NCBI GenBank assembly: GCA_028715415.1
Contig: JAQURX010000002.1
Location: 4,703-68,702, forward strand
Direction of reading: 5' to 3'
Length of the DNA stretch: 64,000 nt
Source: Candidatus Omnitrophota bacterium
GTDB lineage: Bacteria; Omnitrophota; Gorgyraeia; Gygaellales; Profunditerraquicolaceae
This document shows positions 4,793-17,079 of the stretch, one piece after another; the first letter of the stretch is position 1; every line of letters starts with the position of its first letter. A program made the position numbers and the translations under genes. The notes beneath the pieces were generated by a model, which worked only from the letters and a program-made list of their open reading frames with translations, searched no databases and was not told the DNA's origin.

Positions 4793-5134
4793 ATGCAAAT
4801 AATCAATAAAACTACAAATATAAGTTTGGCCAACGAAGTTATTATAGCGCAATCTTTTTTTAAAAAAGCAAAGGGGCTTTTGGGAGTTAAAGAGTTTAAA
4901 GAAGGACATGCACTTATTATTAAGCCATGTAATTCAATCCATACTTTTTTTATGCAAATTTCAATTGATGTTATATTTGTTGATGCAGCAAATATAGTAG
5001 TTAAATGTATCCCAAATCTTCCGCCATTTCGCTTAAGCCCAATTTATTTTGAAGCAAGCTACGTGATTGAATTACCCGCCGGAACAATCAATAAAACCCA
5101 AGTTAAAACAGGTGATTGCCTTTTAATATCATAG
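4793..5134 (+). CDS. DUF192 family protein
   Basis: 113 aa. The pattern ...KKAKGLLGVKEFKEGHALIIKPCNSIHTFFMQISIDVIFVDAANIVV...IELPAGTI matches the conserved DUF192/COG1430 core. Confidence 0.65.
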   Translation: MQIINKTTNISLANEVIIAQSFFKKAKGLLGVKEFKEGHALIIKPCNSIHTFFMQISIDVIFVDAANIVVKCIPNLPPFRLSPIYFEASYVIELPAGTINKTQVKTGDCLLIS

Positions 5135-5172: not shown

Positions 5173-5250
5173 ATGTCCAATCAGAGTTCTTGACAATGTC
5201 CAATCTATTTGGTACACTTTAATTGCTATATAAAAATGTCCAAACTGGAG
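5173..5250 (+). promoter_or_regulatory. Cluster of three direct repeats ATGTCCAA(T/A)C overlapping the promoter; candidate operator
   Basis: Exact ATGTCCAATC at 5173-5182 and 5196-5205; ATGTCCAAACTGGAG at 5236-5250. The first two copies are 23 nt apart. The same motif recurs three times at 16493-16555. Confidence 0.5.
5190..5218 (+). promoter_or_regulatory. sigma70-type promoter TTGACA-N17-TACACT for the HTH/PE-rich gene
   Basis: TTGACA lies at 5190-5195, a 17-nt spacer at 5196-5212, and TACACT at 5213-5218. The spacer itself contains one ATGTCCAATC repeat. Confidence 0.5.
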
Positions 5251-5264
5251 TGCTTGAGGTAGGT

Positions 5265-7244: not shown

Positions 7245-7274
7245 AAAACGCTTTCTTTATACTCCCAAATATCA

Positions 7275-7303
7275 TTGACACTGTATTATATTAATGTTAT
7301 ATT
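7275..7303 (+). promoter_or_regulatory. sigma70-type promoter TTGACA-N17-TATATT (extended -10 TGt) for the Flp pilin operon
   Basis: TTGACA at 7275-7280, a 17-nt spacer, then TATATT at 7298-7303 with TG at 7295-7296. It lies ~230 nt upstream of the first pilin gene. Confidence 0.55.
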
Positions 7304-7311
7304 TTGAATGC

Positions 7312-7445
7312 AATTGAAAGGCGGCAACGAAAAGGCAATTCCACTATGGAGGTAGTGGATGCGCAAAGCCACGGTGAGTATGCTCGCAAAATATTGTTTT
7401 TATATTTCTAGCTTTGGGTCAGAGCGAGAAACTTTTACCGGGTTA
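7312..7445 (+). promoter_or_regulatory. Candidate c-di-GMP-I (GEMM)-like riboswitch aptamer in the pilin operon leader
   Basis: GGCAATTCCACTATGGAGGTAGTGGATGCGCAAAGCCACGG ... GAGCGAGAAACTTTTACCGGGTTACCGAAAGCC shares the GGCAAAC/hairpin/GGACGCAAAGCC and CGGGGTTACCGA signature blocks of the Vc2 c-di-GMP aptamer. It also matches the second element at 16925. It has a longer insertion than typical. Confidence 0.4.
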
Positions 7446-7478
7446 CCGAAAGCCGTCAATGGCTTTCGGTTTTTTATT
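7446..7478 (+). terminator. Intrinsic terminator/attenuator hairpin plus U-tract (expression platform of the leader element)
   Basis: Stem CCGAAAGCC (7446-7454), loop GTCAAT, stem GGCTTTCGG (7461-7469), then TTTTTTATT. The 5' arm overlaps the aptamer 3' stem GGGTTACCGAAAG. Confidence 0.6.
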
Positions 7479-7534
7479 GGATAAATTAGTAAAGACTTTG
7501 TAAAATCAATTAATAAGTTAAAGGAGGTGAGAAA

Positions 7535-7723
7535 ATGTTAAGTTTAAGAGGGAAAAAAGCTCAGAGTACATTAGAGTATATCTTGGTTCTTACGGCTATT
7601 GTTGCAGCAATCGTGGTTGTTTCACAGGGGGTAATAAAAGAAAAGGTTATAAGTATGTTCGGCAATGTAGCTAATCAGGCTGATAAGGCAGTTTCAAAGA
7701 TTAATTTTGATAACGAAGAATAA
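7535..7723 (+). CDS. flp: Flp-family pilin (class III signal peptide, A-QSTLEY motif)
   Basis: 62 aa MLSLRGKKAQSTLEYILVLTAIVAAIVVVSQ. AGGAGGTGAG RBS. G/XXXXEY-type motif with Ala at -1. Confidence 0.75.
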   Translation: MLSLRGKKAQSTLEYILVLTAIVAAIVVVSQGVIKEKVISMFGNVANQADKAVSKINFDNEE

Positions 7724-7751
7724 ACAAAAATTTTTGAGGGAGGTGAAGAAA

Positions 7752-8108
7752 ATGTTGATCTATTTAAACAAAAAAGCGCAAAGCACAGCCGAGTATGTCA
7801 TTGTGTTGGGGTTGGTTGTAGGAGCTGTGGTTGCTATGCAAACATTTGTAAAAAGAGGCTTGCAAGGCAGAATCCATGACGCAGTAAAATATACCGGGGC
7901 TGCAGGCGATACAGATGCAAAAGCAATATTTAAAGGCAACCAGTATGACCCGAATTATGTTGAGAGCAATTTAACAAGATCAAGCTCTTCAGAAGAAAGT
8001 GAAAAAATTGCTACAGGCGGAGGAGAGATTACAAAAGAACTTACCAAGGAATCAAGCTCCACAACTGGTACGCAGACTATGGAAGCAGAAGATGGCAATA
8101 ACGATTAA
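7752..8108 (+). CDS. Flp-type pilin paralog with Ser/Thr/Glu-rich C-terminal tail
   Basis: MLIYLNKKAQSTAEYVIVLGLVVGAVVAM. RBS GAGGGAGGTGAAG before ATG 7752. The ORF track start at 7707 is an upstream in-frame extension. Confidence 0.7.
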   Translation: MLIYLNKKAQSTAEYVIVLGLVVGAVVAMQTFVKRGLQGRIHDAVKYTGAAGDTDAKAIFKGNQYDPNYVESNLTRSSSSEESEKIATGGGEITKELTKESSSTTGTQTMEAEDGNND

Positions 8109-8177
8109 AAGTATGTACTTAACCCCCAATTTTATCGGATAAATTGGGGCGGGCTTGTGCCCAGGGAGGTGGAATAA

Positions 8178-8495
8178 ATGTTGAGATATCACTTAAGAAA
8201 AAAAGGCCAGTCAACTCTGGAATACGCGATTCTTATCGGAGTTATTGTTGCCGGGCTTATCGCGATGCAGACGTATATCAAGAGAGGCTATGAGGGAAAA
8301 TTAAGAGAGAGTGCTGATACTATGGGTAAGCAGTATAATCCCGAGGACACAACTTATAATTATACTACTTCAACCTCTTCTTTAAGTACTGAGGTTGTTT
8401 CTGATTCTAAAACAACAACAACAATTCAGAATCAGACATCGAATAGGACTGGAAACGAAACAGTTGGCGGCGTTACAAACGAAACATTGTTTTAA
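8178..8495 (+). CDS. Flp-type pilin paralog with Thr/Ser-rich C-terminal tail
   Basis: MLRYHLRKKGQSTLEYAILIGVIVAGLIAM. G-QSTLEY fits G/XXXXEY exactly. RBS GGGAGGTGG. Confidence 0.7.
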   Translation: MLRYHLRKKGQSTLEYAILIGVIVAGLIAMQTYIKRGYEGKLRESADTMGKQYNPEDTTYNYTTSTSSLSTEVVSDSKTTTTIQNQTSNRTGNETVGGVTNETLF

Positions 8496-8528
8496 GCAGG
8501 TTAATTAAATTTAAGAGGGGAGAAGCCC

Positions 8529-9380
8529 ATGTTTGTAAAAGCTTTGATATTTTTGGTCGTCTTTGGGGTGATATTCTTTCTTGTCACTTCTGCGTACCCC
8601 GCGTTTGAGATTTTAATGAAACGTTGGCGCAGAAAAAGAATGGATAATATTACCCCAAAGCTGGACCATATGTTTCTGGATATTACATTGCAGAAGCTGA
8701 TGTTTCTGGATGTGTTAGTACCTGTAATATTCGGGATTATAGCAGTTACAGTTTCCAGAAACATTTGGATAGTTTTAGGGGCAATCGTGTTGGGTTTAAT
8801 CATCCCTATCTTCGTGATTAAAAAGTTAGAGTCAATACGCCGGAATAAATTTGCGGGACAAATAGTAGATGTATTGATGATTCTTTCCAGCTGCCTTAAA
8901 GCAGGTTTGAGCATGACGCAGGCTCTGGAAGTTGTGGTTGAAGAAATGCCTTCTCCTGCTAACCAAGAATTTGGCTTAGTAACCCGCCAGATGCAAATGG
9001 GTGTATCTTTGGAGGATGCAATGAACAGCTTGCGCCGGCGTATGAAGGTAAGTGATCTGGATATGGTAGTAACAGCGATGATGGTTGCGAGGGAGAGCGG
9101 AGGAGACCTTACAGAAACATTCTCCCGCCTTGTCTTTACGATTCAGGAACGCAATAAATTAATCAGCCGCGTTAAAGCTTTGTGCGTTCAGGGAAAGTTG
9201 CAGGGTGCGATTATGTCGTTATTACCGATCTTTTTTGCGCTTTTTGTTTATAAGGTTAACCCGCATTTTTTTGATATCTTTTTTGAGGATAACTTTGGAA
9301 GGATGCTTTTTGCATACGCGATAATTTCAGAAATAATGGGGATAATCTTTATCCGCAAATTAAGCAAAGTGGATATTTAG
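8529..9380 (+). CDS. tadB: TadB-like inner-membrane platform protein (T2SS-F domain)
   Basis: 283 aa, multi-TM, with a GspF-like cytoplasmic domain (LKAGLSMTQALEVVVEEMPSP...GVSLEDAMNSL). RBS AGAGGGGAG. Confidence 0.8.
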   Translation: MFVKALIFLVVFGVIFFLVTSAYPAFEILMKRWRRKRMDNITPKLDHMFLDITLQKLMFLDVLVPVIFGIIAVTVSRNIWIVLGAIVLGLIIPIFVIKKLESIRRNKFAGQIVDVLMILSSCLKAGLSMTQALEVVVEEMPSPANQEFGLVTRQMQMGVSLEDAMNSLRRRMKVSDLDMVVTAMMVARESGGDLTETFSRLVFTIQERNKLISRVKALCVQGKLQGAIMSLLPIFFALFVYKVNPHFFDIFFEDNFGRMLFAYAIISEIMGIIFIRKLSKVDI

Positions 9381-9393
9381 GAGAATATATATT

Positions 9394-10287
9394 ATGTTAA
9401 TAATAATAGGGTTGCTTTTAAGTTTAGCGATATATTTAGTGCTCTACCAGATTGGGGTTGCTGCTTCTGAAAAGGCGCATCTTCCGCAGGAAGTTTTTTC
9501 CAATGATGTAGAGCAATCACTTTTGCGTTCTAGTGCTAGCATTGAAACACAGAATACCGCCTGGCTTTCTATTACTAAGCGGTTTAGGGCTCTCGAGAAG
9601 CGTATAAAAGCTACTGGCTTAAGAAGAAAGATAATCAAAGCAGGTTCTCCTATGGGTGTTTTGGAATTCATTTTCTTAAAGATACTTTGTATGACAGCAG
9701 TTCCTTTGATTGCCTTTATTTTATTAGGAAATAAATTTCCGCAGCATTTGGTATTTATTATATCGTTGGGTGTTGGCTTTATTCTTCCGGAATTTTGGTT
9801 GCAAAGGCAGATTAAGATCCGCCAGAACAATATCAGAAAGGACCTGCCCAATATTATCGACCTTTTAAATTTGTGCGTTAGCGGCGGTATGGATTTTATG
9901 CTTGCAGTTAACCGTGTTGTAAAAGAATTACCCAAGTGCGACTTAACGCAGGAATTAAGTGAAGTATACCGCCAGACCCAGATGGGTAAAAGCAGGAAAG
10001 AGGCTTTAAAAGAAATGGCTTGGCGTATAGATATGGCAGAGGTTTATTCATTCGTCAGAACTCTTGTGCAGGCAGATAGGATGGGTTCTCCGATGGCAGA
10101 GGCATTAAAACTTCAGTCAGAAGAGGTCAGGACAAGAAGATTCCATAGAGGAGAGGCAATGGCTTTAAAGGCACCTATAAAACTGCTCTTTCCTCTTTTT
10201 GCATTTATTTTACCGGTTGTTTTGATTATTGTAGGCGGCCCGATTATTTTAAATTTTGTGCGTAACAATGTCAGTATGGGGTTTTAA
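9394..10287 (+). CDS. tadC: TadC-like inner-membrane platform protein (T2SS-F domain)
   Basis: 297 aa. CVSGGMDFMLAVNRVVKELP...YRQTQMGKSRKEALKEMAWR is typical of the GspF/TadC domain. TM segments flank it. Confidence 0.8.
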   Translation: MLIIIGLLLSLAIYLVLYQIGVAASEKAHLPQEVFSNDVEQSLLRSSASIETQNTAWLSITKRFRALEKRIKATGLRRKIIKAGSPMGVLEFIFLKILCMTAVPLIAFILLGNKFPQHLVFIISLGVGFILPEFWLQRQIKIRQNNIRKDLPNIIDLLNLCVSGGMDFMLAVNRVVKELPKCDLTQELSEVYRQTQMGKSRKEALKEMAWRIDMAEVYSFVRTLVQADRMGSPMAEALKLQSEEVRTRRFHRGEAMALKAPIKLLFPLFAFILPVVLIIVGGPIILNFVRNNVSMGF

Positions 10288-10289
10288 AA

Positions 10290-10484
10290 ATGAGAAGACT
10301 AAGACGAGGCCAGAGTACGATTGAGTATTTTTTGATTATGGTGGCTTTTATTTTGGCGCTTCTCGTCAGTAACTTTATTTACAGATTGCATAATCCGACG
10401 GGTTCAGGGATATTCGATAGGTACTTTGTGAATCCGTCCAGCAGGATAGCAGGAAGCATTGGTGCAATGCATTTATTCCATTAA
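10290..10484 (+). CDS. Flp-type pilin paralog
   Basis: MRRLRRGQSTIEYFLIMVAFILALLV. Confidence 0.65.
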   Translation: MRRLRRGQSTIEYFLIMVAFILALLVSNFIYRLHNPTGSGIFDRYFVNPSSRIAGSIGAMHLFH

Positions 10485-10503
10485 GAATTTGGAGGGAAAA
10501 GTT

Positions 10504-10668
10504 ATGTTTAAGAATTTTAGATGCAGAAAAGCGCAAAGCGTTTTGGAATACGCAATGCTCATTATCATTATTGTTACAGCCCTAACAGCTATGAGTTTGT
10601 ATATTCAGCGCGCAATAAATGCCCGTATGAAACAAGTTCAGGCTGAATTGGATGAAAATAAAAGGTAA
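10504..10668 (+). CDS. Flp-type pilin paralog
   Basis: MFKNFRCRKAQSVLEYAMLIIIIVTALTAM. RBS GGAGGGAAAAG before ATG 10504. The ORF track begins at 10459 in the same frame. Confidence 0.65.
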   Translation: MFKNFRCRKAQSVLEYAMLIIIIVTALTAMSLYIQRAINARMKQVQAELDENKR

Positions 10669-10675
10669 GGTAAAT

Positions 10676-11044
10676 ATGAGAAGAGCCCAGAGCACATTAG
10701 AATATTTGGTTTTTATCGCTATCATTGTTGCGGCAGTTACTTCCATGGCCGTATATATGAAAAGGGCTATTCTTGGAAAATACAGGACAAATGCCGAGCA
10801 GGTTAGCGGAAGGTCATTTTATTCTCCGGGAGCAACGGAATCATATTATAAAACAACAAAGGATGTAATAGAGAATAATCATTCGGACAAATTTATACAA
10901 GAAGAGGGCGTTGTCCCTCCGCCAGTAGATGTGCTTGGTTTATCTCTGGGGGGGGAACCGGTGGTTACGCCTAACGTAACTAATATAACAGTTAATTCGG
11001 CTGAAACAGTGTTGCCTTTTGCAAAAGAGCCAGTGAGGCCGTGA
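10676..11044 (+). CDS. Flp-type pilin paralog with extended C-terminal domain
   Basis: MRRAQSTLEYLVFIAIIVAAVTSMAVYM. Likely start ATG 10676 preceded by AAGGTAAGG. ORF track start at 10652. Confidence 0.6.
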   Translation: MRRAQSTLEYLVFIAIIVAAVTSMAVYMKRAILGKYRTNAEQVSGRSFYSPGATESYYKTTKDVIENNHSDKFIQEEGVVPPPVDVLGLSLGGEPVVTPNVTNITVNSAETVLPFAKEPVRP

Positions 11045-11045
11045 T

Positions 11046-11834
11046 ATGAACTACAAAATTAACACAAGAAAACAGAGAGGATTTGCGTTTGCAGAATACG
11101 CTATTCTTATCGGCTTGGTGGCTATGGTGTTTGTAACTATGGATATGTATATTAAACGCGGTATTCAAGCGCGCACAAAGGATATAACAGATTTTTATTT
11201 AAGCCCTAATGGCGCGCCTAAGCAAGCAGTAGACCAGCTTTTGCCCAATAAAACTTACACAAGAGACTCTAGTACGGATTATGATGCAACTTCAGATTTA
11301 TCTATGTCTACAGGTGGAGGTACCGGAGTAGATGTAAGTTCAACCATGACTTCAAAAACACATTCAAAAACTGTAGATCAGGATTTGTATAGCGGCATAC
11401 TACCCGGGAACCTTTTAACTTTTATTCCTTGGGAATCTGGAGATATTCAGGCTCCAAAAAGCGAAGATTATACCAACCCGGATCATACTACTGAAGAAAC
11501 AAAATATGATTGGGAAATTGATGATGATATTCCTCGGCTGCAGGCAGAGGTAGATAAATTGGTTACGAAAGCGCAGATGTTAGAAGAAAGGGCGGCAATG
11601 TTAGATAAAACAAGCGGTTCTGTGTCTTCAGATGCTAATATTTTAAGTGGCAATTTTTTTACCAGTTTCTTTTCTGCAATCACAAGTGGGACTAATTCAA
11701 TGAATCAGACCAGCTCTGATTTATCCAATAATGCCAGTGACCTAAGAAGGCAGGCGCAAGAATTTAGAGATAGGGCTTCTCAAATAGAAGCGAGAATCGC
11801 AAGCCTTACGCAATCAACACAGGTAGGTGCATAA
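11046..11834 (+). CDS. Pilin-like protein (N-terminal Flp-like hydrophobic segment) with a C-terminal coiled-coil region
   Basis: 262 aa. RGFAFAEYAILIGLVAMVFVTM, then Ser/Thr-rich, then a heptad-like C-terminus (LQAEVDKLVTKAQMLEERAAML...RRQAQEFRDRASQIEARIASL). Confidence 0.55.
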   Translation: MNYKINTRKQRGFAFAEYAILIGLVAMVFVTMDMYIKRGIQARTKDITDFYLSPNGAPKQAVDQLLPNKTYTRDSSTDYDATSDLSMSTGGGTGVDVSSTMTSKTHSKTVDQDLYSGILPGNLLTFIPWESGDIQAPKSEDYTNPDHTTEETKYDWEIDDDIPRLQAEVDKLVTKAQMLEERAAMLDKTSGSVSSDANILSGNFFTSFFSAITSGTNSMNQTSSDLSNNASDLRRQAQEFRDRASQIEARIASLTQSTQVGA

Positions 11835-12649
11835 TGATTATATGCGGAAATAATAGAGGACAGGCGGTGTTAGAAATGTCGATTTTCGCGGTTGTATTAT
11901 TTATGGTCTTAGGGGGCCTTATTAGTTATATCCAGCAACTTAACGACCAGCAATATGTGCAGATGGAAACTTTTCGCAGGGCGCTTCAAACAGCAGGTGG
12001 ATCTTTCCCCCAATCATATTTACCAGAAGCTTTAGGAGGCGGCAAAGGAGCGGGTGCTGCGGTTAACTATGTTCTTGTCCAGCACCGTAGATATACTGAT
12101 TTTTCGGATTTCTTCAGGAAAGGCCAGCTGGTTCCTGTCTCTGGCAATGCTTCAATATACTGGGCGATCCCGGCAATTGGCGTAACAAAACCGCAGGACC
12201 GTTTAATTTATAGAATTAATGATGATGAGCCGCTACTTCCTCAAATTGTAAATGATGTAATGGGCGAGTTAAAAGATAGCATCCCGTCAATAGACATTCC
12301 TATTTTAGGCGAAAGTAGTATTACAGTGGGAGTTGCAGATATAAAAACAGATGTTAGTACAGATTTTAAAGAACGGGATATTAAACAAGAAAGCATAAAC
12401 AGTATTATTACTACAAAAAAATCCACACTGAAAGATACGATAAGGACAAGCTTTGGTTATACGGTTATACCGACTGGCTTAGCATCGGATTTAATTGGTA
12501 TTGACCCGGCAAAATTCCCCCAAGCAAATCATTCTATTACGCAGAGATTATATCGGGATGCAAGCGGGCAATATAGATATTCAAGGTTTGTTCCTGAAGG
12601 CACAACTGTAGAGAGAGGCAGGACATGGGAAACTCCTATTGGAAAATAA
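11834..12649 (+). CDS. tadE: TadE-like pseudopilin
   Basis: MIICGNNRGQAVLEMSIFAVVLFMVLGGLISY matches the TadE N-terminal (RGQ..VE..) pattern. Confidence 0.6.
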   Translation: MIICGNNRGQAVLEMSIFAVVLFMVLGGLISYIQQLNDQQYVQMETFRRALQTAGGSFPQSYLPEALGGGKGAGAAVNYVLVQHRRYTDFSDFFRKGQLVPVSGNASIYWAIPAIGVTKPQDRLIYRINDDEPLLPQIVNDVMGELKDSIPSIDIPILGESSITVGVADIKTDVSTDFKERDIKQESINSIITTKKSTLKDTIRTSFGYTVIPTGLASDLIGIDPAKFPQANHSITQRLYRDASGQYRYSRFVPEGTTVERGRTWETPIGK

Positions 12650-12912
12650 AAAATATTATTAAGAATAACAAGGGGCAGAACACTCTGGAGATTACCCTTG
12701 TTTTAATAATTATGATTAGCCTTCTTTATGGAGTGATTAATGTCTGGCTTTGGGGTAACAAACAGATTGTAAAAAGGCAGATTTCGTATAATAATTCAAG
12801 GATACAGGCTGGAACAGCTAAAGATGTATATCTTGAGCCGGTGTGGTGGGATTATAGAGGTAAAGACGCTATAGAAAAATTAACGGAAAACCAAGTCTTA
12901 ATTGATAAATAA
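12625..12912 (+). CDS. Small TadE-like pseudopilin
   Basis: 95 aa NKGQNTLEITLVLIIMISLLYGVINVWLW. Overlaps the preceding gene by 25 nt. Confidence 0.5.
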   Translation: MGNSYWKIKNIIKNNKGQNTLEITLVLIIMISLLYGVINVWLWGNKQIVKRQISYNNSRIQAGTAKDVYLEPVWWDYRGKDAIEKLTENQVLIDK

Positions 12913-12923
12913 AAAGGAAAATA

Positions 12924-15071
12924 ATGTTTATTTATTTTCACCAGAATAGATTAAATTACGAAAAAGGGCAGATGATGCCCGTTTTTATTTTGGTGCTGGT
13001 AGTTATTATTACAATGGCATTGGTTACTGTAAATATTTCTAAGATTGGTCTAATCAAGACAGACTCTTCAAATGCTGCAGATGCCGGTGCTCTGGCCGGA
13101 GGCGCTGCAATGGCAAATACTTTTAATAGTATTGCCTATGCTAATTCAGAGATGAAGGCTGCATATGATGAATTCTTCGCGCAGATGTCCACGATGTTTG
13201 CTATGCAGCTGGTTGCTTTAGTGTTGACTAAAACTTCCGCGACCGCAGCTCAAATAAGCGCAACAGCAGGCTTAGCAGCCGGCCAGGCCGCTGATACGTC
13301 TGCAATGTTAGCATTAGATGAAATTAATAGTGATTTGCCTTGTATTGCAATTGGATTTGCGGAATCGGCTTCTCAAAGCACTACTGCAGCACTCGCAGCT
13401 ATGACAGCTGCTGAAGCTTCAATTGGAACAGCTACTGCCATGATGACTGCAATAAAGATAACAACAGTTGGAATGATGTTATCTACTTTCTTTTTTGCGG
13501 TTGCGCAGAATTTTATGTATTTATCTATCAGAAAAATGGCGCGAGAAGGCAGAAAGAATGCAATCAGGGTTGCCCACCAGTATCTATTTAACAATAGCGG
13601 GATAACTCAAAAGTTAAAAAGGAATATTCTAAAAGACCCGGATTTTGGAATCGGCAATTGGCAGCAATTTAGCAATTATCAACAGGCATTTGCGCTTTTT
13701 ATGAAGTTTATTGTTAAAGACAACTCTTTTTATACTTACCCGTGGATAGATGGGCAAAATAGGACGCATACGGTTACTTCGCAGGTTGACATACGTCCGG
13801 TGGATAAGTTTTCGTTAAAAGTTTCTAATCTGCCGCTTCCCGCAATAGAAGCAATTTTTGCTGTAATCTTAATAACCGTTTCTGCGGCTATCTCTCAGTT
13901 TTCTGCAACCCTTGCTTCTTATGGAAAGGCAATAGCTTCTTACACCGACACAAAAACTAATTATGAGAAGGCACTTGAAGCTTTAGAGAGAGCTTGTGAT
14001 ACTTATTGGCCTTGCCATCTACTTGGAATAAGTTGTGATGTTTATGAGGCATCAATGAATGATGCTATAACTGCATTAACAAAAGGTGAAGAAGCTAACA
14101 AGGCAGGCAATGGTTTTGTTGAGGCTGGCTTAGGCACAAATGCATCAGCAATTGGTACAATTGCCCCAATAAGCACTCTTTTAGTAGGAGGAAATGCTTC
14201 TGCTTTGGGTGGCTTAAGGCCGGGCCCTACATTTACCAGTTTTAGCGATGCCGATGGGCTTTTGTTTATTATTGACTGGATAGAAGATGTTGTGCATGAT
14301 CGTTTAGTGCGCGTTTCAACGACGCAAACTCATGCTGGAGGAGATTTGACTTTATGGCAGACTAAGTATCCAAATATTAGCAGCTATTCTATAGTTAGCT
14401 TTCAGGGAGACGGTCAAATTAAACCTCAGCCAAAAGCAAATTTTGATGCAGATATAAAATGGACTGATATCTATTTACCTGAGATAAATCCTCCGGAGGA
14501 CGCGGTTTGTAAAGAAGTAGAAGGCAAAGTAGGTTTATTGCAAGAGCAGTTGGATAATCTTCAGGCAAGCAGTGATTCAATGGAAGCAAATGCAAATGAT
14601 GTAGATGGGTATGCTCAAACTGTTACAGAAGATAGCAATGCTTTGGCATCAAGTTATACTAGCATAGGCTCAGGGCTTTCTTTGAGCGCTGCGGAAACCA
14701 GAGAAGGGACTAGTGCGATAGATAATAAGGTGCAGAACATAGTAAATTCTTTGCAATCCATCTTAACTTGGATTCAAATCCTGATGGATCCACAGTTGCT
14801 TCCGATATTACTGGAGTTGATAAAGTCGCTTCCTCAAATAAAGGATGGTATTCTTGCAGGCGCAAGTTTTCTTGACGGAGGAGCAAGCTTTCTTAATGGA
14901 GAAGCTGACAGGTTAAATTCTACTGTTGGCTCGGAAACGCAGGCTTACGGAGAATCCACGAACACTATAAGAGAGCATATAGGAGAAGGCGGAGTGCAAC
15001 AGAATGAAATTAATGCAATGCAGGCTGAAATAGAGCAGTATAAAAAAGATTATTCCCAGTGTTCGTTTTAA
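12924..15071 (+). CDS. tadG: TadG-like pilus assembly protein (Tad_N/TadE-G N-terminal domain plus large C-terminal region)
   Basis: 715 aa. MMPVFILVLVVIITMALVTVNISKIGLIKTDSSNAADAGALAGGAAMAN matches the conserved AADAAALAGA block of TadG. The true start may be the ATGATG at 12972. Ala/Ser/Thr-rich. Confidence 0.7.
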   Translation: MFIYFHQNRLNYEKGQMMPVFILVLVVIITMALVTVNISKIGLIKTDSSNAADAGALAGGAAMANTFNSIAYANSEMKAAYDEFFAQMSTMFAMQLVALVLTKTSATAAQISATAGLAAGQAADTSAMLALDEINSDLPCIAIGFAESASQSTTAALAAMTAAEASIGTATAMMTAIKITTVGMMLSTFFFAVAQNFMYLSIRKMAREGRKNAIRVAHQYLFNNSGITQKLKRNILKDPDFGIGNWQQFSNYQQAFALFMKFIVKDNSFYTYPWIDGQNRTHTVTSQVDIRPVDKFSLKVSNLPLPAIEAIFAVILITVSAAISQFSATLASYGKAIASYTDTKTNYEKALEALERACDTYWPCHLLGISCDVYEASMNDAITALTKGEEANKAGNGFVEAGLGTNASAIGTIAPISTLLVGGNASALGGLRPGPTFTSFSDADGLLFIIDWIEDVVHDRLVRVSTTQTHAGGDLTLWQTKYPNISSYSIVSFQGDGQIKPQPKANFDADIKWTDIYLPEINPPEDAVCKEVEGKVGLLQEQLDNLQASSDSMEANANDVDGYAQTVTEDSNALASSYTSIGSGLSLSAAETREGTSAIDNKVQNIVNSLQSILTWIQILMDPQLLPILLELIKSLPQIKDGILAGASFLDGGASFLNGEADRLNSTVGSETQAYGESTNTIREHIGEGGVQQNEINAMQAEIEQYKKDYSQCSF

Positions 15072-16009
15072 GGAGGAGGTGTAAAGTGTTGTTAAAAGCA
15101 AGATACAAGATAATTTCTTTTCTCGCGGCTTTATTTATTTTATCTAATTTGGGAACGTGTTTTTCTGCTTGGTGGGATAATTCATATATACCGGCTCCCC
15201 CTGAAACCGAACAGCTAAGGACGCAAACAAAAGTCTTTTCCGGGACAGAATTCAAATTTACATATTATACCAGCACGCAGGATGAAAAGAGTATAAAGGA
15301 TTTCTATAAACGGGAACTAATTAATTTAGGTTGGAAGGAAAAGCAGATTTTGGATGGTTTAATGGGAGACAAAAAAGAGGAGATAAAAGAGGGTTCAACT
15401 TTAGATTTATTTTTTGACAACAATCTTATTTATGAAAAAGACGGGAAGATGCTCACTGTAACATTCCTTCCTAAAGAAGTCAGGCAGCAAGGAAGGGTTG
15501 ATTATTCAATTAGCATAGGAAAGCCTGATTTCGAAAAGTTTAAAGTTTCTCCTCAGGCAAGCCCAATTCCAAAATTAATGGCTAAGCCCCAAAAGAATGT
15601 TGCCCCGGTTTATCCCGGAGCAGTGTTAGTTAGCCTTTCAGAAAAAGCCGAGTATTTAAAAGCAGTTTATTATACTCAAGATGATATTGAGAAGGTTATG
15701 GATTATTATAAAGGAAAAATGCCTTCATCCGGATGGTCATTGGTTGATGAAGTCCCAATTACAAAAACAGATTACAGTAAGGCAACTGAAAAATTATGGG
15801 ATTTGGAATCATGCCCAACTTGCCAGCAAGGAAAAATAGGATTTTCTCAGATTATGGGAGAGGTTTGGTTTGGAGAATTGAGTTATGCTAATCAAAAAAG
15901 CGATACCTGTAAAGTTGGTTTTATCAACAATGCAAAAGCAGAGGGAGGAAAGCAGGGATATTTACCAGGCTTTACCGCTATAAGAGTAGACTATGAGAAG
16001 AAGAAATAG
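15059..16009 (+). CDS. Secreted or lipoprotein-like protein of unknown function with two internal repeats
   Basis: 316 aa. Likely start GTG 15086 after AAGGAGGAGG. Signal peptide ends near LGTC. Repeated block YYT..D..I.DFYK..L...GW appears at residues ~70 and ~200. Confidence 0.5.
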   Translation: MFVLRRRCKVLLKARYKIISFLAALFILSNLGTCFSAWWDNSYIPAPPETEQLRTQTKVFSGTEFKFTYYTSTQDEKSIKDFYKRELINLGWKEKQILDGLMGDKKEEIKEGSTLDLFFDNNLIYEKDGKMLTVTFLPKEVRQQGRVDYSISIGKPDFEKFKVSPQASPIPKLMAKPQKNVAPVYPGAVLVSLSEKAEYLKAVYYTQDDIEKVMDYYKGKMPSSGWSLVDEVPITKTDYSKATEKLWDLESCPTCQQGKIGFSQIMGEVWFGELSYANQKSDTCKVGFINNAKAEGGKQGYLPGFTAIRVDYEKKK

Positions 16010-16481
16010 TTTTATAAACGCTCAATCATTTGTTGAGTATGCTGTGATTATTGCAGTAGTAGCTGCTGCAATTTTGGCAGGGAGGGCCTTTTTTGTTCGA
16101 GCCTTGCAGGCAAAATACCGCCAGAGCGCAGATACTTTTGGCCAAGGCGAACAGTATGATAAAAGAGCGACCAAAGACGTTTCTTTAGATACTCCGGGGT
16201 CAGATCTTGTCCCTACAATACTCCCTGAGCTTGTGCATGATTGTGATGTAATTAGAGAAAGAGTAACCGGCTTAGAAACATCAATTAGTAACCTTTATAG
16301 TCAGGCAGATAAATTGGAGCAGAGTGCTGCAAGTTTGGCAGTAAGCGCGGCATTGGTAGGCAGCGTAAGCGATATTTCAATTAAGCAGTATAAATCTGAA
16401 GCAACATCTTTAAGAGATGAAGCAGCAGATAAGCAACAGCAGGTAGATACCATTAGAGGCAAGTTTCCAGATTGTTTTTAG
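15993..16481 (+). CDS. Pilin-like protein with C-terminal coiled coil
   Basis: MRRRNSFINAQSFVEYAVIIAVVAAAILAG, then a heptad-like C-terminus. The start overlaps the stop of the previous gene. Confidence 0.6.
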   Translation: MRRRNSFINAQSFVEYAVIIAVVAAAILAGRAFFVRALQAKYRQSADTFGQGEQYDKRATKDVSLDTPGSDLVPTILPELVHDCDVIRERVTGLETSISNLYSQADKLEQSAASLAVSAALVGSVSDISIKQYKSEATSLRDEAADKQQQVDTIRGKFPDCF

Positions 16482-16568: not shown

Positions 16569-16654
16569 CTGGTAGATAGAAAAATAGAGGTTGGTTAAGC
16601 TTGTTTCGTTGCCACGAATAAGCGCCTTTCAAGCCAGCCTCTTATTTCTACCAG
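16569..16654. repeat. Long imperfect inverted repeat (potential ~85-nt hairpin)
   Basis: 5' arm CTGGTAGATAGAAAAATAGAGGTTGG (16569-16594) and 3' arm CCAGCCTCTTATTTCTACCAG (16634-16654). The outer 8 bp and inner AGAGG/CCTCT pair perfectly. Confidence 0.4.
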
Positions 16655-16858
16655 TGTTTCAAACATCCCACCATTAGGTTCTCTAAAAGTGAAGTAATCA
16701 TGAAAAACAATAGTTTTTGGGAAGCTTTTGCTTCTTTTCTGGCCAGGTAATTGACAATTAAACTAACTAAAAGTAAATTTTTTAAGCAGAGTTAAAACAT
16801 GCTCAAACTAAAGAACTTTCAATATGAAAGCGCTATCATTTTGGTATGATTTTTTGCT

Positions 16859-16887
16859 TGACACTATTAATAACTATATGATATACT
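16859..16887 (+). promoter_or_regulatory. Near-consensus sigma70 promoter TTGACA-N17-TATACT with extended -10 (TGa)
   Basis: TTGACA at 16859-16864, 17-nt spacer, TATACT at 16882-16887, TG at 16879-16880. About 35 nt upstream of the riboswitch. Confidence 0.6.
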
Positions 16888-16924
16888 TTTGATGCTCTTG
16901 GAAATAAGATTGTTTATCTGAAAA

Positions 16925-17005
16925 AGGTAAACTCCGAGTAATCGGAGGACACAAAGCCACGGGTCCTCACGCGAGAAAGAATTGTAGGATAGCCGGGTTG
17001 CCGAA
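16925..17005 (+). promoter_or_regulatory. c-di-GMP-I (GEMM) riboswitch aptamer
   Basis: GGTAAACTCCGAGTAATCGGAGGACACAAAGCCACGGGTCCT...GTAGGATAGCCGGGTTGCCGAA aligns block-for-block with the Vc2 aptamer (GGCAAACC-hairpin-GGGACGCAAAGCC ... GGTAGGTAGCGGGGTTACCGA). Confidence 0.6.
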
Positions 17006-17038
17006 TAAAAAAATTATTTGACAATCCGGCTTTTTTTT
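16991..17038 (+). terminator. Intrinsic terminator acting as the riboswitch expression platform
   Basis: AGCCGG (16991-16996) pairs with CCGGCT (17025-17030) and is followed by TTTTTTTT (17031-17038). The 5' arm is shared with the aptamer P3 stem, so the two structures are mutually exclusive. Confidence 0.6.
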
Positions 17039-17079
17039 GAAGCATTAATAAATAGTTTGTTAAAGAATAAAAAAAGAAA

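Follow-up and report, generated by a model that had tools for sequence, protein, structure and literature searches.

In the Kil Tad pilus of Myxococcus, a model with a major pilin, Flp pilins as adapters and a tip of TadE/F/G has been demonstrated genetically (PMC12075869), and the Omnitrophota predator V. archaeovorus is known to express Tad complexes (PMC10066038). Many small genes with class III signal peptides at the conserved locus studied here, with giant genes downstream, were described in a 2023 preprint. In the archaeal Methanococcus maripaludis, the EppA substrate site is [KR][GA]↓Q with Glu at +5, as in EpdA (RAQI) and EpdB-E (KGQx) (PMC4371748 Table 1; PMC3875500). Here we analyzed a 64-kb stretch of DNA (the window) from a Candidatus Omnitrophica MAG, that is, an uncultured Omnitrophota bacterium. 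Taking our explanation as a whole, we consider it likely that the region between 7535 and 16481 encodes the structural subunits of a Tad-type (type IVc) pilus machine, one that is conserved in Omnitrophota. The pilin gene set is ordinary in kind, with eight small pilins and three tip-type pilins of a Tad-type pilus; new are the pattern of Ala at position -1, a common helical-hairpin module, and c-di-GMP riboswitches ahead of both the pilin operon and a giant-gene operon.

The machine genes and non-pilin neighbours are the following:

49..924, + strand: RcpC/CpaB-like Tad assembly protein (Pfam RcpC 98.6 bits, SAF)
941..2602, + strand: Tad secretin (RcpA/CpaC-like) with C-terminal TonB_C fusion (Pfam Secretin 137.5 bits, T2SS-T3SS_pil_N, TonB_C 54.7 bits)
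2606..4759, + strand: TadZ(CpaE)-TadA(CpaF) fusion of a ParA/MinD-like ATPase and a T2SSE traffic ATPase (Pfam T2SSE 213.9 bits; N-terminal half CbiA/AAA_31/ParA)
4793..5134, + strand: DUF192 protein, a conserved accessory gene of such Tad loci (Pfam DUF192 67.9 bits)
5223..7244, + strand: Omnitrophota-specific 673-aa protein with Pro/Glu-rich linker (no Pfam family)
8529..9380, + strand: TadB-like platform protein, single T2SSF domain (Pfam T2SSF 69.9 bits, one stretch)
9394..10287, + strand: TadC-like platform protein, single T2SSF domain (Pfam T2SSF 53.1 bits, one stretch)
15059..16009, + strand: conserved 316-aa protein within the pilin operon, hydrophobic N-terminus (no Pfam family at E <= 0.01)

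RcpC, the secretin, the TadZ-TadA fusion and DUF192 thus lie upstream of the pilin operon. The secretin-TonB_C fusion recurs in loci L001, L002, L082 and L084, the best relatives of the TadZ-TadA fusion are from Candidatus Omnitrophota (58% and 52% identity), and the DUF192 protein has tblastn matches in 48 fetched loci, non-Omnitrophota Tad loci among them. The 673-aa protein occupies the same position in 32 Omnitrophota-type loci and is absent from L001-L080; the 316-aa protein is conserved in 8 loci, and the only precomputed annotation of its orthologs is a 'faint' AF_1845 match. The pil genes and the TadE/F/G-like genes are tightly packed with TadB and TadC, and since the genes between 7535 and 16481 are at most 69 nt apart or overlap, they form one operon. 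The first proposal from the sequence, that a Tad locus here encodes prepilin-type (class III signal peptide) proteins, is borne out by the neighbouring RcpC, secretin, TadZ-TadA fusion and two single-T2SSF platform proteins, and by a Tad_N/TadG match above the Pfam threshold.

Ten class-III-type N-termini (pil1-8 and the TadE-like and TadF-like proteins) accompany a TadG-like ORF at the locus. The first six pilins, with the predicted cleavage site marked by an arrow, are:

7535..7723, + strand: pil1, 62-aa prepilin (KK-A↓QSTLEY), 53-aa mature (Class_IIIsignal 16.9 bits)
7752..8108, + strand: pil2, 118-aa prepilin (KK-A↓QSTAEY) (motif, alignment, strong Shine-Dalgarno)
8178..8495, + strand: pil3, 105-aa prepilin (KK-G↓QSTLEY) with conserved Thr-rich C-terminal part (homologs, AF2 model)
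10290..10484, + strand: pil4, 64-aa prepilin (RR-G↓QSTIEY), 57-aa mature (motif; Class_IIIsignal 16.2 bits)
10504..10668, + strand: pil5, 54-aa prepilin (RK-A↓QSVLEY), 44-aa mature, all-helical type, candidate adapter/minor pilin (motif)
10676..11044, + strand: pil6, 122-aa prepilin (RR-A↓QSTLEY), 118-aa mature (motif; Class_IIIsignal 14.3 bits)

All eight N-termini quoted in the preliminary description were found on the + strand where it had placed them. The eight ORFs begin with the consensus [KR][KR]-[G/A]-Q-S-x-x-E-Y ahead of some 20 hydrophobic residues; when aligned, each motif precedes an uncharged hydrophobic stretch of 20-22 residues and then usually Y-[IM]-K-R. Two further ORFs, the TadE-like (11834-12649) and the TadF-like (12625-12912), bear G↓Q...E[M/I]. 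A search of the six-frame translation of the window with [KRN][GA]Q[SAN]xxE[YFMI] gave 9 matches, every one on the + strand between 7.5 and 16.5 kb, against a mean of 0.065 and a maximum of 1 in 200 codon shuffles. Mature sizes fall at 44-57 aa (pil1, 4, 5), 95-118 aa (pil2, 3, 6) and 152-250 aa (pil7, 8), so that five of the eight exceed classical Flp pilins, and several do carry C-terminal extensions of the kind reported earlier; pil1 falls within the 40-60 aa known for Tad pilins (PMC10710030).

Curated profiles gave a mixed result. The TadG-like ORF exceeded the Tad_N (PF13400) threshold (29.1 bits vs 22.3), and the Flp and TadE assignments of the preliminary description did not reach theirs: Flp_Fap (PF04964) matched only pil8, at 17.1 bits vs 32.2, and TadE (PF07811) gave 15.1 and 12.4 bits vs 22.9. 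No Flp_Fap, Class_IIIsignal or TadE match among the window ORFs attained the Pfam gathering score, and the NCBIfam pilin models had no match to these ORFs. The best model for the small pilins, also sub-threshold, was the archaeal Class_IIIsignal (PF04021), the nearest HMM for 4/8 window pilins, which matches 97/117 pil3 orthologs, compared with 9/117 for Flp_Fap. The failure of every curated pilin HMM to reach threshold would suit a reading in which the N-termini are plain Sec signal peptides, or anchor small unrelated proteins in the membrane, and the motif has no part in prepilin processing. We regard this as very improbable, given that the conserved polar motif with its acidic residue precedes the hydrophobic segment rather than following it, that it occurs 9-10 times in 9 kb vs 0.065 expected and does so within a complete Tad machine locus, and that most orthologs match the class III profile and the motif is kept across more than 80 loci.

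The pilins differ in their position, size and conservation. The first gene past the leader is pil1, with a perfect Shine-Dalgarno sequence, AAAGGAGGTGA; it is identical to NCBI PHO70_01055, and its orthologs hold position 1 in four close Omnitrophota relatives (L082, L084, L086 and L090). At position 2 of the same four, pil2 orthologs share 47-54% identity over ~100 aa (34-54% across the eight loci compared), including a conserved, Ser/Thr/Gly-rich C-terminal part of ~60 aa. For pil3 there are 165 homologs, every named one from Omnitrophica/Omnitrophota and some labelled by JGI as 'UPF0333 family' or 'Flp pilin'; its AF2 model places a helix at 13-51 (pLDDT up to 94) and, with low confidence (pLDDT just 50-60), a beta-hairpin at 58-96. 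The Ser/Thr-rich tails thus modelled are conserved in sequence, with 45-70% identity over the full length in ~120 orthologs. The glycosylation once suggested for the pilus gained no support: N-glycosylation sequons are not conserved (no alignment column above 28%; 1.7 observed vs 1.3 expected), and no glycosyltransferase was seen among the scanned genes of the first 18 kb. Weakly conserved positional orthologs of pil4 occur in L084, L086 and L090; in L082 the position-4 gene bears the motif, yet the best BLAST match of pil4 there is pil1. Orthologs of pil5 in all four relatives have 64-68% identity over the full 44 aa and Ala at -1 throughout, and positional orthologs of pil6 have 34-36% identity.

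The earlier word 'expanded' suggests recent growth, but the set is ancient and fixed: its orthologs are collinear and one-to-one in all four relatives. Other long Omnitrophota loci have 9-14 prepilin-like genes (one locus has 6 and two truncated ones 3), compared with a median of 2 (0-7) in 78 Tad loci from other phyla. We also considered that the eight Flp-like genes might be interchangeable alternative major pilins, each able to form a filament alone and so provide surface or host-range variation, as in Haloferax PilA1-6. All eight do share the processing site and a similar alpha-1 helix, and multi-pilin archaea include sets in which each can be the major pilin (PMC4371748); nevertheless, the paralogs are merely 16-31% identical to pil1 in the alignment and fall into three size classes, the operon is single with no sign of switching elements, and ribosome-binding strength, near-perfect on pil1-3, drops sharply past pil3. 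Since each pilin has its own collinear ortholog in the four relatives, old, non-redundant roles are indicated rather than a variable family, and we consider such interchangeability improbable.

The remaining pilins are the candidates for a tip complex:

11046..11834, + strand: pil7, 262-aa prepilin (QR-G↓FAFAEY) with C-terminal helical module (motif)
11834..12649, + strand: TadE-like minor pilin, 271 aa (NR-G↓QAVLEM) (Pfam TadE 15.1 bits vs threshold 22.9)
12625..12912, + strand: TadF-like minor pilin, 95 aa (NK-G↓QNTLEI) (Pfam TadE 12.4 bits, sub-threshold)
12924..15071, + strand: TadG-like large minor pilin, 715 aa (Pfam Tad (Tad_N, PF13400) 29.1 bits, threshold 22.3)
15993..16481, + strand: pil8, 162-aa prepilin (IN-A↓QSFVEY) (Flp_Fap 17.1 bits, sub-threshold)

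The two TadE-like genes and one TadG-like gene announced earlier are present among the pilins, as two TadE/F-like ORFs and one TadG-like ORF. TadE is the only family recurrent among the TadE-like orthologs (6/21 at E <= 0.1), and the TadF-like gene, which overlaps its TadE-like neighbour by 25 nt, has orthologs in L084 and L090 at 47-48% identity. The C-terminus of the TadG-like protein is a Cys-bounded helical module ending in YKKDYSQCSF, and its last ~200 aa align with the L082 ortholog of pil8, which has two modules (E 1e-7); the alignment takes in both Cys positions as well as the terminal YKKDY-x-x-C. In pil8 itself, one helical-hairpin module lies between Cys84 and Cys161; the single-sequence AF2 model has a helix at 10-46 joined by a disordered linker to two more, 84-122 and 127-157, at pLDDT 80-94, and pil8 orthologs have one to about three modules, each with terminal YP[DQEF]CF. 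The AF2 models show an unbroken helix at the N-terminus, as type IV pilins do. Residues 95-259 of pil7 resemble TadG-like residues 462-611 (E 0.002), its helical part is similar to the L082 module of pil8 type (E 3e-5), and its residues 150-260 match many coiled-coil families weakly. Judged from these alignments, the predicted helical-hairpin module is common to TadG, pil7 and pil8 and bounded by two Cys in TadG and pil8, at low similarity (23-26% identity) in coiled-coil-like sequence.

Two leaders on the same strand precede the pilin operon and the operon downstream of it:

7275..7480, + strand: pilin operon leader, with promoter-like site 7275-7303, c-di-GMP-I-type aptamer 7324-7450, and terminator-like hairpin 7445-7470 with T-run
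16858..17050, + strand: downstream operon leader, with promoter-like site 16858-16887, c-di-GMP-I-GGC aptamer 16917-17006, and terminator

The pilin leader has a promoter-like TTGACA-17-TATATT with TG and an 11-bp terminator-like hairpin followed by Ts. Its aptamer falls short of the RF01051 threshold (29.9 bits vs 35; E 3e-4 in the 296-nt leader); the core is conserved, stem P1a has compensatory changes, and orthologous leaders exceed the threshold in L082 and L083 (45.1), L084 (36.6), L086 (48.9) and L102 (37.2). The downstream aptamer passes its own threshold (RF03167, 67.7 bits vs 59, E 2e-14), and the 5' arm of its terminator is the aptamer 3' strand; in the minimum-free-energy fold the terminator forms from GCCGGGUUGCC, then a U-run (z -4.4). 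RF03167-family aptamers also lie upstream of giant ORFs in L084, L090 and L130. The giant ORF of this downstream operon carries Peptidase_C39, M50, cell-wall hydrolase and M15 domains, and because it and the pilin operon each follow a c-di-GMP-class riboswitch, joint deployment of pilus and giant protein while the cell attaches to a host or prey is suggested.

These same riboswitches and the giant ORF, together with the many minor pilins per one major pilin typical of T2SS, could also point to a mainly T2SS-like device, in which the class III proteins assemble into a short endopilus (pseudopilus) in the periplasm, fitted with specialised caps, by which the giant protein that degrades cell walls, or other cargo, is pushed or anchored through the secretin, and not into a long adhesive pilus. 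We hold this to be unlikely, since the components are of Tad rather than T2SS type (TadZ-TadA fusion, two single-domain platform proteins, RcpC, Tad_N), GspC/L/M-like genes were not detected, and no part of the giant protein's visible 15,307 aa resembles the C-terminal modules of the pilins. The giant protein also has its own N-terminal membrane anchor and ~11 TM-like segments, and giant proteins of such loci contain SecA-like domains (2023 preprint).

Half of the pilins were originally said to carry Ala at -1; it is present in five of eight (pil1, 2, 5, 6, 8), with Gly in pil3, 4 and 7. Ala occurs in 37% of Omnitrophota E-Y N-termini vs 6% in other phyla. Orthologs interchange the two residues (Ala 87 and Gly 32 among 120 in the pil3 family; 12 G, 10 A and 1 S in the TadE-like family), so both are tolerated at the same site. 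Ala at -1 reportedly lowers cleavage by classical PilD (Strom and Lory, 1991). As for the peptidase, the window shows none, as previously noted: the A24 motif GxGDxK is in no ORF of the whole window, Pfam Peptidase_A24 matches none of the ten large ORFs scanned in the first 18 kb, and no A24 prepilin peptidase was found in any Omnitrophota locus fetched, which counts against our explanation. So does the statement that Ala at -1 is essentially absent from bacterial prepilins (PMC4471445). On the other hand, an unlinked peptidase is normal for type IV filament systems, where it may be a 'loner' or common to several systems (PMC6668835).

Returning to a Tad-type pilus, the ten class III proteins, each with a short basic leader, [KR]-[G/A]↓Q, Glu at +5 (plus Tyr at +6 in the eight that are Flp-like) and a ~20-residue hydrophobic helix, would insert in the inner membrane. 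We infer that the cut after Gly/Ala is made on the cytoplasmic side by an A24-family prepilin peptidase whose gene lies elsewhere in the genome; with either residue at the site, the proposed enzyme must accept both. The TadZ-TadA ATPase and TadB/TadC platform would then polymerise the mature pilins through the RcpC/secretin channel. The filament body most likely comes from the first genes past the riboswitch, which have the strongest ribosome-binding sites: pil1, the candidate major pilin, and perhaps also pil2 and pil3. Low-abundance adapter pilins are the most likely role of pil4 and pil5, which are very short, and a tip complex is most likely made up of TadE/TadF/TadG, pil7 and pil8. This proposed division into body, adapters and tip follows the model of the Myxococcus Kil Tad pilus (PMC12075869). 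The processing sites, in turn, resemble the archaeal EppA substrate site in their [KR][GA]↓Q and E+5, and the presence of Ala, instead of the near-universal bacterial Gly, at the cleavage site in more than one third of the pilins of this lineage is a likeness to archaea.

Between 7535 and 16481, the forward strand of the window encodes eight Flp-like prepilins, pil1 to pil8, together with three proteins resembling TadE, TadF and TadG. Residues are counted from the predicted cleavage site, marked by an arrow, with −1 directly before it and +1 directly after it.

Prepilin-type genes of the window
7535–7723, forward strand: pil1, Ala at −1, mature protein of 53 aa
7752–8108, forward strand: pil2, Ala at −1
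8178–8495, forward strand: pil3, Gly at −1
10290–10484, forward strand: pil4, Gly at −1, mature protein of 57 aa
10504–10668, forward strand: pil5, Ala at −1, mature protein of 44 aa
10676–11044, forward strand: pil6, Ala at −1
11046–11834, forward strand: pil7, Gly at −1, site G-F-A-F-A-E-Y
11834–12649, forward strand: TadE-like, NR-G↓QAVLEM and a hydrophobic helix, TadE 15.1 bits
12625–12912, forward strand: TadF-like, NK-G↓QNTLEI and a hydrophobic helix, TadE 12.4 bits
12924–15071, forward strand: TadG-like, Tad_N (PF13400) 29.1 bits against a gathering score of 22.3, residues 15–62
15993–16481, forward strand: pil8, Ala at −1

In the ORFs listed between 5 and 19 kb, pil1 to pil8 start with a short, Lys/Arg-rich leader followed by [G/A]-Q-S-[TVF]-x-E-Y, from which pil7 differs, and their alignment continues with some 20 uncharged, hydrophobic residues and then, in most, Y-[IM]-K-R-G/A. 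All eight carry E5-Y6 and the hydrophobic segment, with Gly at −1 in three and Ala in five, while [GA]↓Q…E5 is found in seven of the eight as well as in the TadE-like and TadF-like proteins, the exception being pil7 with G↓F. When the whole window was translated in six frames, the degenerate site pattern occurred nine times, always on the forward strand between 7.5 and 16.5 kb, as against a mean of 0.065 and a maximum of 1 in 200 codon shuffles. Each N-terminus quoted in the preliminary description was recovered on the forward strand, and its estimate that about half of the pilins have Ala at −1 agrees with the count of 5/8 (pil1, 2, 5, 6 and 8). The C-terminal extensions it ascribed to many of the pilins are likewise real, being conserved parts of 50–200 aa in five of the eight: pil1, pil4 and pil5 have mature sizes of 40–60 aa and no C-terminal domain, and pil2, 3, 6, 7 and 8 measure 95–250 aa. 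The genes from 7535 to 16481 are spaced by 69 nt at most or overlap, Shine-Dalgarno sequences are near-perfect in pil1–3 and weak in the later genes, or these are apparently translationally coupled, and the TadE-like and TadF-like genes lie directly upstream of the gene with the Tad_N domain.

Existing Pfam and NCBIfam pilin models miss these proteins, and in NCBI they stand as hypothetical proteins, with PHO70_01065 and PHO70_01055 of Candidatus Omnitrophica identical to pil3 and pil1, respectively. None of the eight reaches the Flp_Fap (PF04964) gathering score of 32.2 bits; only pil8 matches (17.1 bits, E 0.0048), none of the remaining seven gives a match at E ≤ 1, and 9 of 117 pil3 orthologs match at E ≤ 0.1. 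No NCBIfam pilin model, Flp included, matches the window pilins. Class_IIIsignal (PF04021, gathering score 23.7 bits) gives sub-threshold scores for pil1 (16.9 bits), pil3 (16.7), pil4 (16.2) and pil6 (14.3), and matches 97/117 pil3 orthologs at E ≤ 0.1 (best 3.3e-4). JGI labels several pil3 orthologs "UPF0333 family" or "Flp pilin". The TadE model (PF07811, gathering score 22.9 bits) likewise leaves both of its candidates below threshold, and at E ≤ 0.1 it matches 6 of 21 TadE-like orthologs (best 9.7e-4), with no competing family recurring. The assignment to Flp and TadE families in the preliminary description was therefore borne out only in part, with Flp_Fap and TadE sub-threshold and Tad_N above threshold. 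Searched against the databases, pil1 (62 aa) recovered only itself and one other protein, the query being too short for 5.8 billion sequences, and a pil3-family profile found no relative among solved structures, its only matches being chance ones to G5 domains at E > 2. Based on the motif, the neighbouring genes and the Tad_N match, there is little doubt that the window proteins are prepilin-type subunits of a Tad machine.

We also considered that these N-termini might be ordinary Sec signal peptides. This was rejected, as the polar motif with its acidic residue comes before, not after, the hydrophobic segment, and AF2 models contain a single continuous N-terminal helix (residues 13–51 in pil3 and 10–46 in pil8).

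The pilin region forms the distal end of a complete Tad-type locus, in which the Tad (type IVc) machine set is brought together with every component above its Pfam threshold.

Tad machine and adjoining genes
49–924, forward strand: RcpC/CpaB (Pfam)
941–2602, forward strand: secretin with a C-terminal TonB_C domain, 54.7 bits (Pfam)
2606–4759, forward strand: fusion of TadZ (ParA/MinD-like) and TadA/CpaF (T2SSE), 717 aa (Pfam)
4793–5134, forward strand: DUF192 (COG1430) (Pfam)
5223–7244, forward strand: 673-aa protein without a Pfam family
8529–9380: TadB-like, one T2SSF domain (Pfam)
9394–10287: TadC-like, one T2SSF domain (Pfam)

The closest relatives of the TadZ-TadA protein are Omnitrophota sequences with 58% and 52% identity. 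The fusion drew 599 relatives in a genome scan; 80 loci were kept, most of which match it over nearly the full query length, across many phyla. The fusion is thus widespread in hundreds of bacterial loci and not special to this organism.

Several neighbours deserve mention in their own right. The secretin-TonB_C fusion is also present in four of the Tad loci fetched for comparison (L001, L002, L082 and L084), and its TonB_C domain may anchor the secretin by spanning the peptidoglycan or the periplasm. The DUF192 gene, which directly follows TadZ-TadA, is tblastn-positive in 48 fetched Tad loci, including those of Firmicutes, Chloroflexota, Acidobacteriota and Geobacteraceae, and would seem to be an accessory gene of this Tad subtype that has gone unrecognised. 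The 673-aa protein occupies the same position in 32 Omnitrophota-type loci and is absent from the Tad loci of other phyla; read by eye, its N-terminus is helix-turn-helix-like, and a long Pro/Glu/Lys-rich linker leads to a C-terminal domain of about 400 aa. Between the TadG-like gene and pil8 lies a gene for a 316-aa protein (15059–16009, forward strand) with a hydrophobic N-terminus and, by eye, two similar halves; it is conserved in eight loci, where the orthologs carry just a "faint" match to the archaeal Pfam family AF_1845. In L001, a related Omnitrophota locus, a 1,050-aa protein combining a PIG-L deacetylase with glycoside hydrolase family 3 (7020–10172, forward strand) lies between TadZ-TadA and the pilins, in the same interval as an 800-aa Cys-rich protein with a hydrophobic N-terminus, which shows that the Tad locus accepts cell-wall-active insertions.

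The pilin set is shared with relatives gene by gene. Database searching with pil3 yielded 165 homologs, of which the 120 listed are 45–70% identical over the full length, and all homologs with an organism name belong to Omnitrophica/Omnitrophota. Two long contigs with pil3 homologs, L082 and L084, have the same gene order: TPR protein, rotamase, RcpC, secretin-TonB_C, TadZ-TadA, DUF192 and an unknown protein, then three pilins, TadB, TadC, four or five pilins, TadE/F and TadG, and finally a protein of about 300 aa, a coiled-coil pilin and a large or giant ORF (16,746 aa in L084). In the four close Omnitrophota relatives L082, L084, L086 and L090, the best match of each window pilin lies at the same ordinal position with two exceptions, namely pil4 in L082 and the TadF-like protein, which has no detected match in L082 and L086. 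Identity between positional orthologs is 64–68% over all 44 residues for pil5, 59–62% for pil3 and 47–54% for pil2. In the more distant Omnitrophota loci L102, L110, L117 and L130 the order differs, with 11–12 prepilin-like genes, and other long metagenomic Omnitrophota loci have 9–14, with three in two truncated loci and six in another. Tad loci of other phyla retrieved with the same TadZ-TadA query (n = 78) have 0–7 such genes, with a median of 2. The set described beforehand as expanded is hence larger than in other bacteria (9–14 against a median of 2), although not through a recent burst of paralogs, as the orthologs are fixed by position; judged from these sequences, the repertoire is ancient, stable and differentiated.

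The residue at −1 varies within the lineage. In the pil3 family it is Ala in 87/120 and Gly in 32/120, and among TadE-like orthologs there are 12 Gly, 10 Ala and one Ser. The 80 metagenome-derived Omnitrophota-type loci L085–L164 hold 476 prepilin-like N-termini with 299 Gly, 167 Ala and 10 Ser, and 461 of the 476 have Gln at +1. Restricted to E-Y (Flp-type) sites, Ala makes up 153/409 (37%) in L001, L082 and L084–L164, compared with 4/68 (6%) in other phyla, at least one of the four being doubtful. Usage varies by locus, from 12 Gly and no Ala to one Gly and eight Ala (permutation p ~5e-5, a value inflated by kinship among loci), and because Gly and Ala swap between orthologs at the same position, both residues must suit the processing enzyme. 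Many bacterial phyla often have Gln at +1 in their Tad loci, so that the unusual trait is Ala at −1 and not Gln at +1 alone, and the Omnitrophota processing code breaks the bacterial rule of invariant Gly at −1. In archaea, Ala at −1 is common. Gln at +1 is likewise frequent in Gram-positive Flp pilins (PMC3875500). Substrates of the M. maripaludis peptidase EppA have the site [KR][GA]↓Q with E+5, as in RAQI of EpdA and KGQx of EpdB–E (PMC4371748), and EppA needs the +1 Gln (PMC4371748; PMC3875500). In the published view, Tad systems derive from Epd-like archaeal pili (PMC6668835; PMC10710030); the Ala −1/EppA-type site pattern fits such an origin. The combination of Gly or Ala at −1, Gln at +1 and Tyr at +6 is intermediate between archaeal Epd and bacterial Flp pilins, and bears on the archaeal origin proposed for Tad.

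Which enzyme cuts these sites was sought in the same loci. No ORF of the 64-kb window contains the A24 motif GxGDxK, in agreement with the preliminary description, which had seen no prepilin peptidase in the window, and the absence extends to the Omnitrophota-type loci L001, L002 and L081–L164; Peptidase_A24 is also absent from the Pfam lists of L082 and L084 and from scans of the upstream genes of L002. In Tad loci from outside Omnitrophota, a GxGDxK ORF lies within 10 kb in 26 of 78. An unlinked peptidase is not anomalous in itself, because prepilin peptidases may be "loners" and may be shared between systems (PMC6668835) and type IVa pili are also present in many Omnitrophota (PMC10066038). 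Two neighbours were considered as stand-ins and dropped: DUF192 is without membrane segments and is found together with TadV-like genes in five loci of other phyla (L006, L031, L039, L072 and L077), and the 673-aa protein has neither a Pfam family nor, on reading its translation, a hydrophobic segment.

Beyond the N-terminal helix, sequence conservation extends to the Thr-rich tails of pil2 and pil3, and the pil3 tail has a low-confidence model as a long beta-hairpin (pLDDT 50–60). The earlier proposal of a glycosylated pilus fared poorly: N-x-S/T sequons in pil3 orthologs are not conserved (at most 28% in any column; 1.7 observed against 1.3 expected from composition), and scanning genes in the first 18 kb revealed no glycosyltransferase. 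Glycosylation of the pilins is accordingly unsupported, although O-glycosylation is possible.

In pil8, the AF2 model has a C-terminal helical hairpin (helices 84–122 and 127–157, pLDDT 80–94) bounded by Cys84 and Cys161. Orthologs of pil8 contain one to about three copies of this module, each ending in YP[DQEF]CF, and a Cys-bounded module ending in YKKDY[PS][DQ]C[FS] occurs once each in the TadG-like protein and pil8 of the window and two to three times in pil8 orthologs of two relatives; the pil8 ortholog of L084 is just 66 aa long and lacks it.

Copies of the Cys-bounded module
Window 14400–15071, forward strand: one copy, C-terminal part of the TadG-like protein
Window 16230–16481, forward strand: one copy, C-terminal part of pil8
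L082 16267–17079: two copies, pil8 ortholog
L090 about 16594–17500: two to three copies, pil8 ortholog

The TadG-like protein ends in YKKDYSQCSF, and its last ~200 residues align with the two-module pil8 ortholog of L082 (E 1e-7), both cysteines included. The helical part of pil7 aligns more weakly with that ortholog (E 3e-5), and with TadG at E 0.002. Neither pil7 nor the TadG-like protein gave a significant BLASTP match to pil8 of the window, and kinship of the modules is tentative because it is seen against the longer L082 ortholog alone and because the resemblance is slight and falls in coiled-coil-like sequence. With this reserve, the module would be common to the minor pilins and mobile between them, disulfide-stapled where both cysteines are present, and its distribution looks like domain shuffling among minor pilins.

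Both the pilin operon and the operon of the giant gene that follows have leaders with features of c-di-GMP riboswitches.

Leader elements and the giant ORF
7275–7303, forward strand: promoter-like site, pilin operon leader
7324–7450, forward strand: c-di-GMP-I-type aptamer (RF01051), 29.9 bits against a gathering score of 35
7445–7470, forward strand: hairpin and T-run, pilin operon leader
16917–17006, forward strand: c-di-GMP-I-GGC aptamer (RF03167), 67.7 bits against a gathering score of 59, E 2e-14
18075–63998, forward strand: giant ORF, stop-free for more than 15,300 codons and running past the end of the window

The aptamer of the pilin leader stays below 35 bits because of a 63-nt insertion. 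Orthologous pilin leaders exceed the RF01051 threshold in L082 and L083 (45.1 bits), L084 (36.6), L086 (48.9) and L102 (37.2), with aptamers at L082 9198–9328, L084 9201–9337, L086 7074–7208 and L102 7681–7819, and a five-sequence leader alignment contains a conserved core and compensatory base pairs. In the minimum-free-energy structure, the terminator hairpin of the pilin leader folds independently of the aptamer. The RF03167 aptamer lies upstream of a 332-aa gene and the giant ORF, and RF03167 is also found upstream of giant ORFs in L084 (19789–19931), L090 (18961–19051) and L130 (18347–18423). The 3' strand of the window's RF03167 aptamer is also the 5' arm of a terminator, and ligand binding should therefore allow read-through, which predicts an ON switch for the GGC-variant leader. 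Thus, as far as sequence and predicted folding can tell, both operons appear to be under c-di-GMP-class riboswitches.

A further c-di-GMP-I riboswitch (73.8 bits) was noticed in L086 at 3121–3211 on the opposite (reverse) strand, some 4 kb ahead of the pilin leader, and suggests that c-di-GMP riboswitches exert dense control in these genomes. In the window, the GGC riboswitch is followed first by the gene for the 332-aa protein (17080–18078, forward strand), whose stop codon overlaps the start of the giant ORF. The protein is Gly/Ala/Ser-rich, has a Sec-type signal peptide (…VAFA↓A) and no Pfam family, and is conserved in five related loci.

The giant ORF matches the published Omnitrophota giant genes. 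It begins with an N-terminal membrane anchor, Peptidase_C39 and a long Pro/Thr/Tyr-rich low-complexity stretch, and contains further along Peptidase_M50, a cell-wall hydrolase (Hydrolase_2), Peptidase_M15 and about 11 TM-like segments; relatives of its N-terminal 1,500 aa are encoded downstream of the Tad genes in nine further loci. The main rival reading, considered less likely, is that the machine acts as a T2SS-like endopilus serving the giant protein. This is implied by the label used in a 2023 preprint (10.1101/2023.11.21.568195), and the Peptidase_C39, M50, cell-wall hydrolase and M15 domains of the giant ORF would suit it. Against it, the machine has Tad-type and not T2SS-type components, and a comparison of the pilin C-terminal modules with the giant protein revealed no similarity.

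For a Tad pilus, gene order, ribosome-binding strength, size and module sharing allow us to infer a division of labour. Prepilins would most likely be inserted in the inner membrane, where an unlinked A24 peptidase tolerant of Gly or Ala would cut after that residue, and the TadZ-TadA/TadB/TadC motor would assemble the pilins through RcpC and the secretin. In this assembly pil1, and possibly pil2 and pil3, would probably form the body of the filament, pil4 and pil5, both very short, would probably act as adapters, and TadE/F/G with pil7 and pil8 would probably make up the tip. The genetically dissected Kil Tad pilus of Myxococcus, with major pilin KilP, short adapters KilK and KilO and TadE/F/G-like tips (PMC12075869), provides a precedent for such parts. 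A more ambitious proposal, which we consider improbable when taken as a whole, joins the archaeal Epd/EppA-style code to a set of about ten pilins, a relaxed unlinked peptidase, co-evolution and a delivery filament. Omnitrophota Tad machines would have kept the substrate code [KR]-[G/A/S]↓Q…E5, read by a peptidase of archaeal-type −1 specificity, perhaps one resembling EppA or one so far unrecognised, whose co-evolution with its substrates would explain the near-all-Gly and mostly-Ala lineages, and the multi-pilin, c-di-GMP-riboswitched filament would be a contact or delivery device for the giant cell-wall-degrading protein in predation.

Omnitrophota are widespread, uncultured and ultra-small, and are thought to be predators or parasites. 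The Tad locus with its adjacent giant gene is their most conserved candidate attack apparatus, which becomes testable with subunits defined (eight Flp-like and three tip-type), orthology fixed, a processing code and apparent riboswitch control, and which offers targets for metaproteomics (mature N-termini QSTLEY), heterologous cleavage assays and cryo-ET.

Compared with the bacterial Flp/Tad systems (Aggregatibacter Flp1-TadE/F/G, Caulobacter PilA-Cpa), the window has the same TadA, TadZ, TadB, TadC, RcpC, secretin and Tad_N/TadG, and its pilins likewise open a continuous hydrophobic helix with E5-Y6 and lack Pro22. Studied Tad loci usually carry one to three Flp-like genes, whereas the window has eight, five with conserved C-terminal parts of 50–200 aa and five with Ala at −1 (37% in the lineage against 6% in other phyla). 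It differs further in the fused TadZ-TadA, the TonB_C domain of the secretin, the predicted c-di-GMP riboswitch leader, the lack of TadV in or near the locus and Flp_Fap scores below threshold. The smallest window pilins, at 44–57 aa mature, are within or near the 40–60 aa of Tad pilins (PMC10710030).

With the Epd pilus of Methanococcus maripaludis (DUF361/PF04021), the window shares the site [KR]-[G/A]↓Q with Glu at +5 (PMC4371748), two single-domain platform genes and about ten pilin-like proteins in three size classes, Epd pilins also numbering about ten with classes of 55–63, 130–156 and 200–299 aa (PMC3875500). PF04021 is the best HMM for the window pilins, though sub-threshold, and published phylogenies group Tad with Epd in a single clade (PMC6668835). 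Unlike Epd pilins, which are without Tyr at +6 (PMC3875500), the window pilins have this residue; the host is a diderm bacterium with secretin and RcpC; the pilin genes are clustered with the machine, whereas Epd genes are scattered; N-glycosylation, documented for EpdE, finds no support in the window pilins; and an EppA homolog was not found in the window or the loci examined. EpdE is also reported to occur in a pyroglutamate form.

The Kil system of Myxococcus xanthus has the same part classes, that is a Tad machine, a major Flp, short Flp adapters and TadE/F/G, its TadE/F/G-like proteins forming trimers in which the large TadG-like member exposes a variable C-terminal domain, and it is used by a predator alongside a second lytic/secretory apparatus (PMC12075869). 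Its minor-pilin tips are interchangeable. The likeness rests on part classes, with no sequence homology to Kil tip proteins claimed. A single TadE/F/G set and two module-sharing pilins here stand against four paralogous tip clusters in Kil, and the partner is a giant multi-domain protein rather than a T3SS-like body.

Within the phylum itself, Tad complexes are known and are expressed in the predator V. archaeovorus (PMC10066038). The 2023 preprint (10.1101/2023.11.21.568195), in whose full text "riboswitch" occurs 0 times, describes a secretion/pilus locus upstream of giant genes as conserved across the phylum, which the loci fetched here confirm, and notes many small genes with class III signal peptides there; these small genes are analysed neither in it nor in PMC10066038. 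A 2026 preprint likewise finds giant genes flanked by genes for pili and secretion. In these accounts of Omnitrophota Tad loci and giant genes we did not find the anatomy of the pilin set, its number and orthology, its C-terminal modules and shared helical hairpin, the lineage-wide Ala at −1, the EppA-type site with Flp Tyr6, the missing linked peptidase or the two riboswitches. The window locus belongs to a known, barely characterised kind, and its analysis sharpens a known system.
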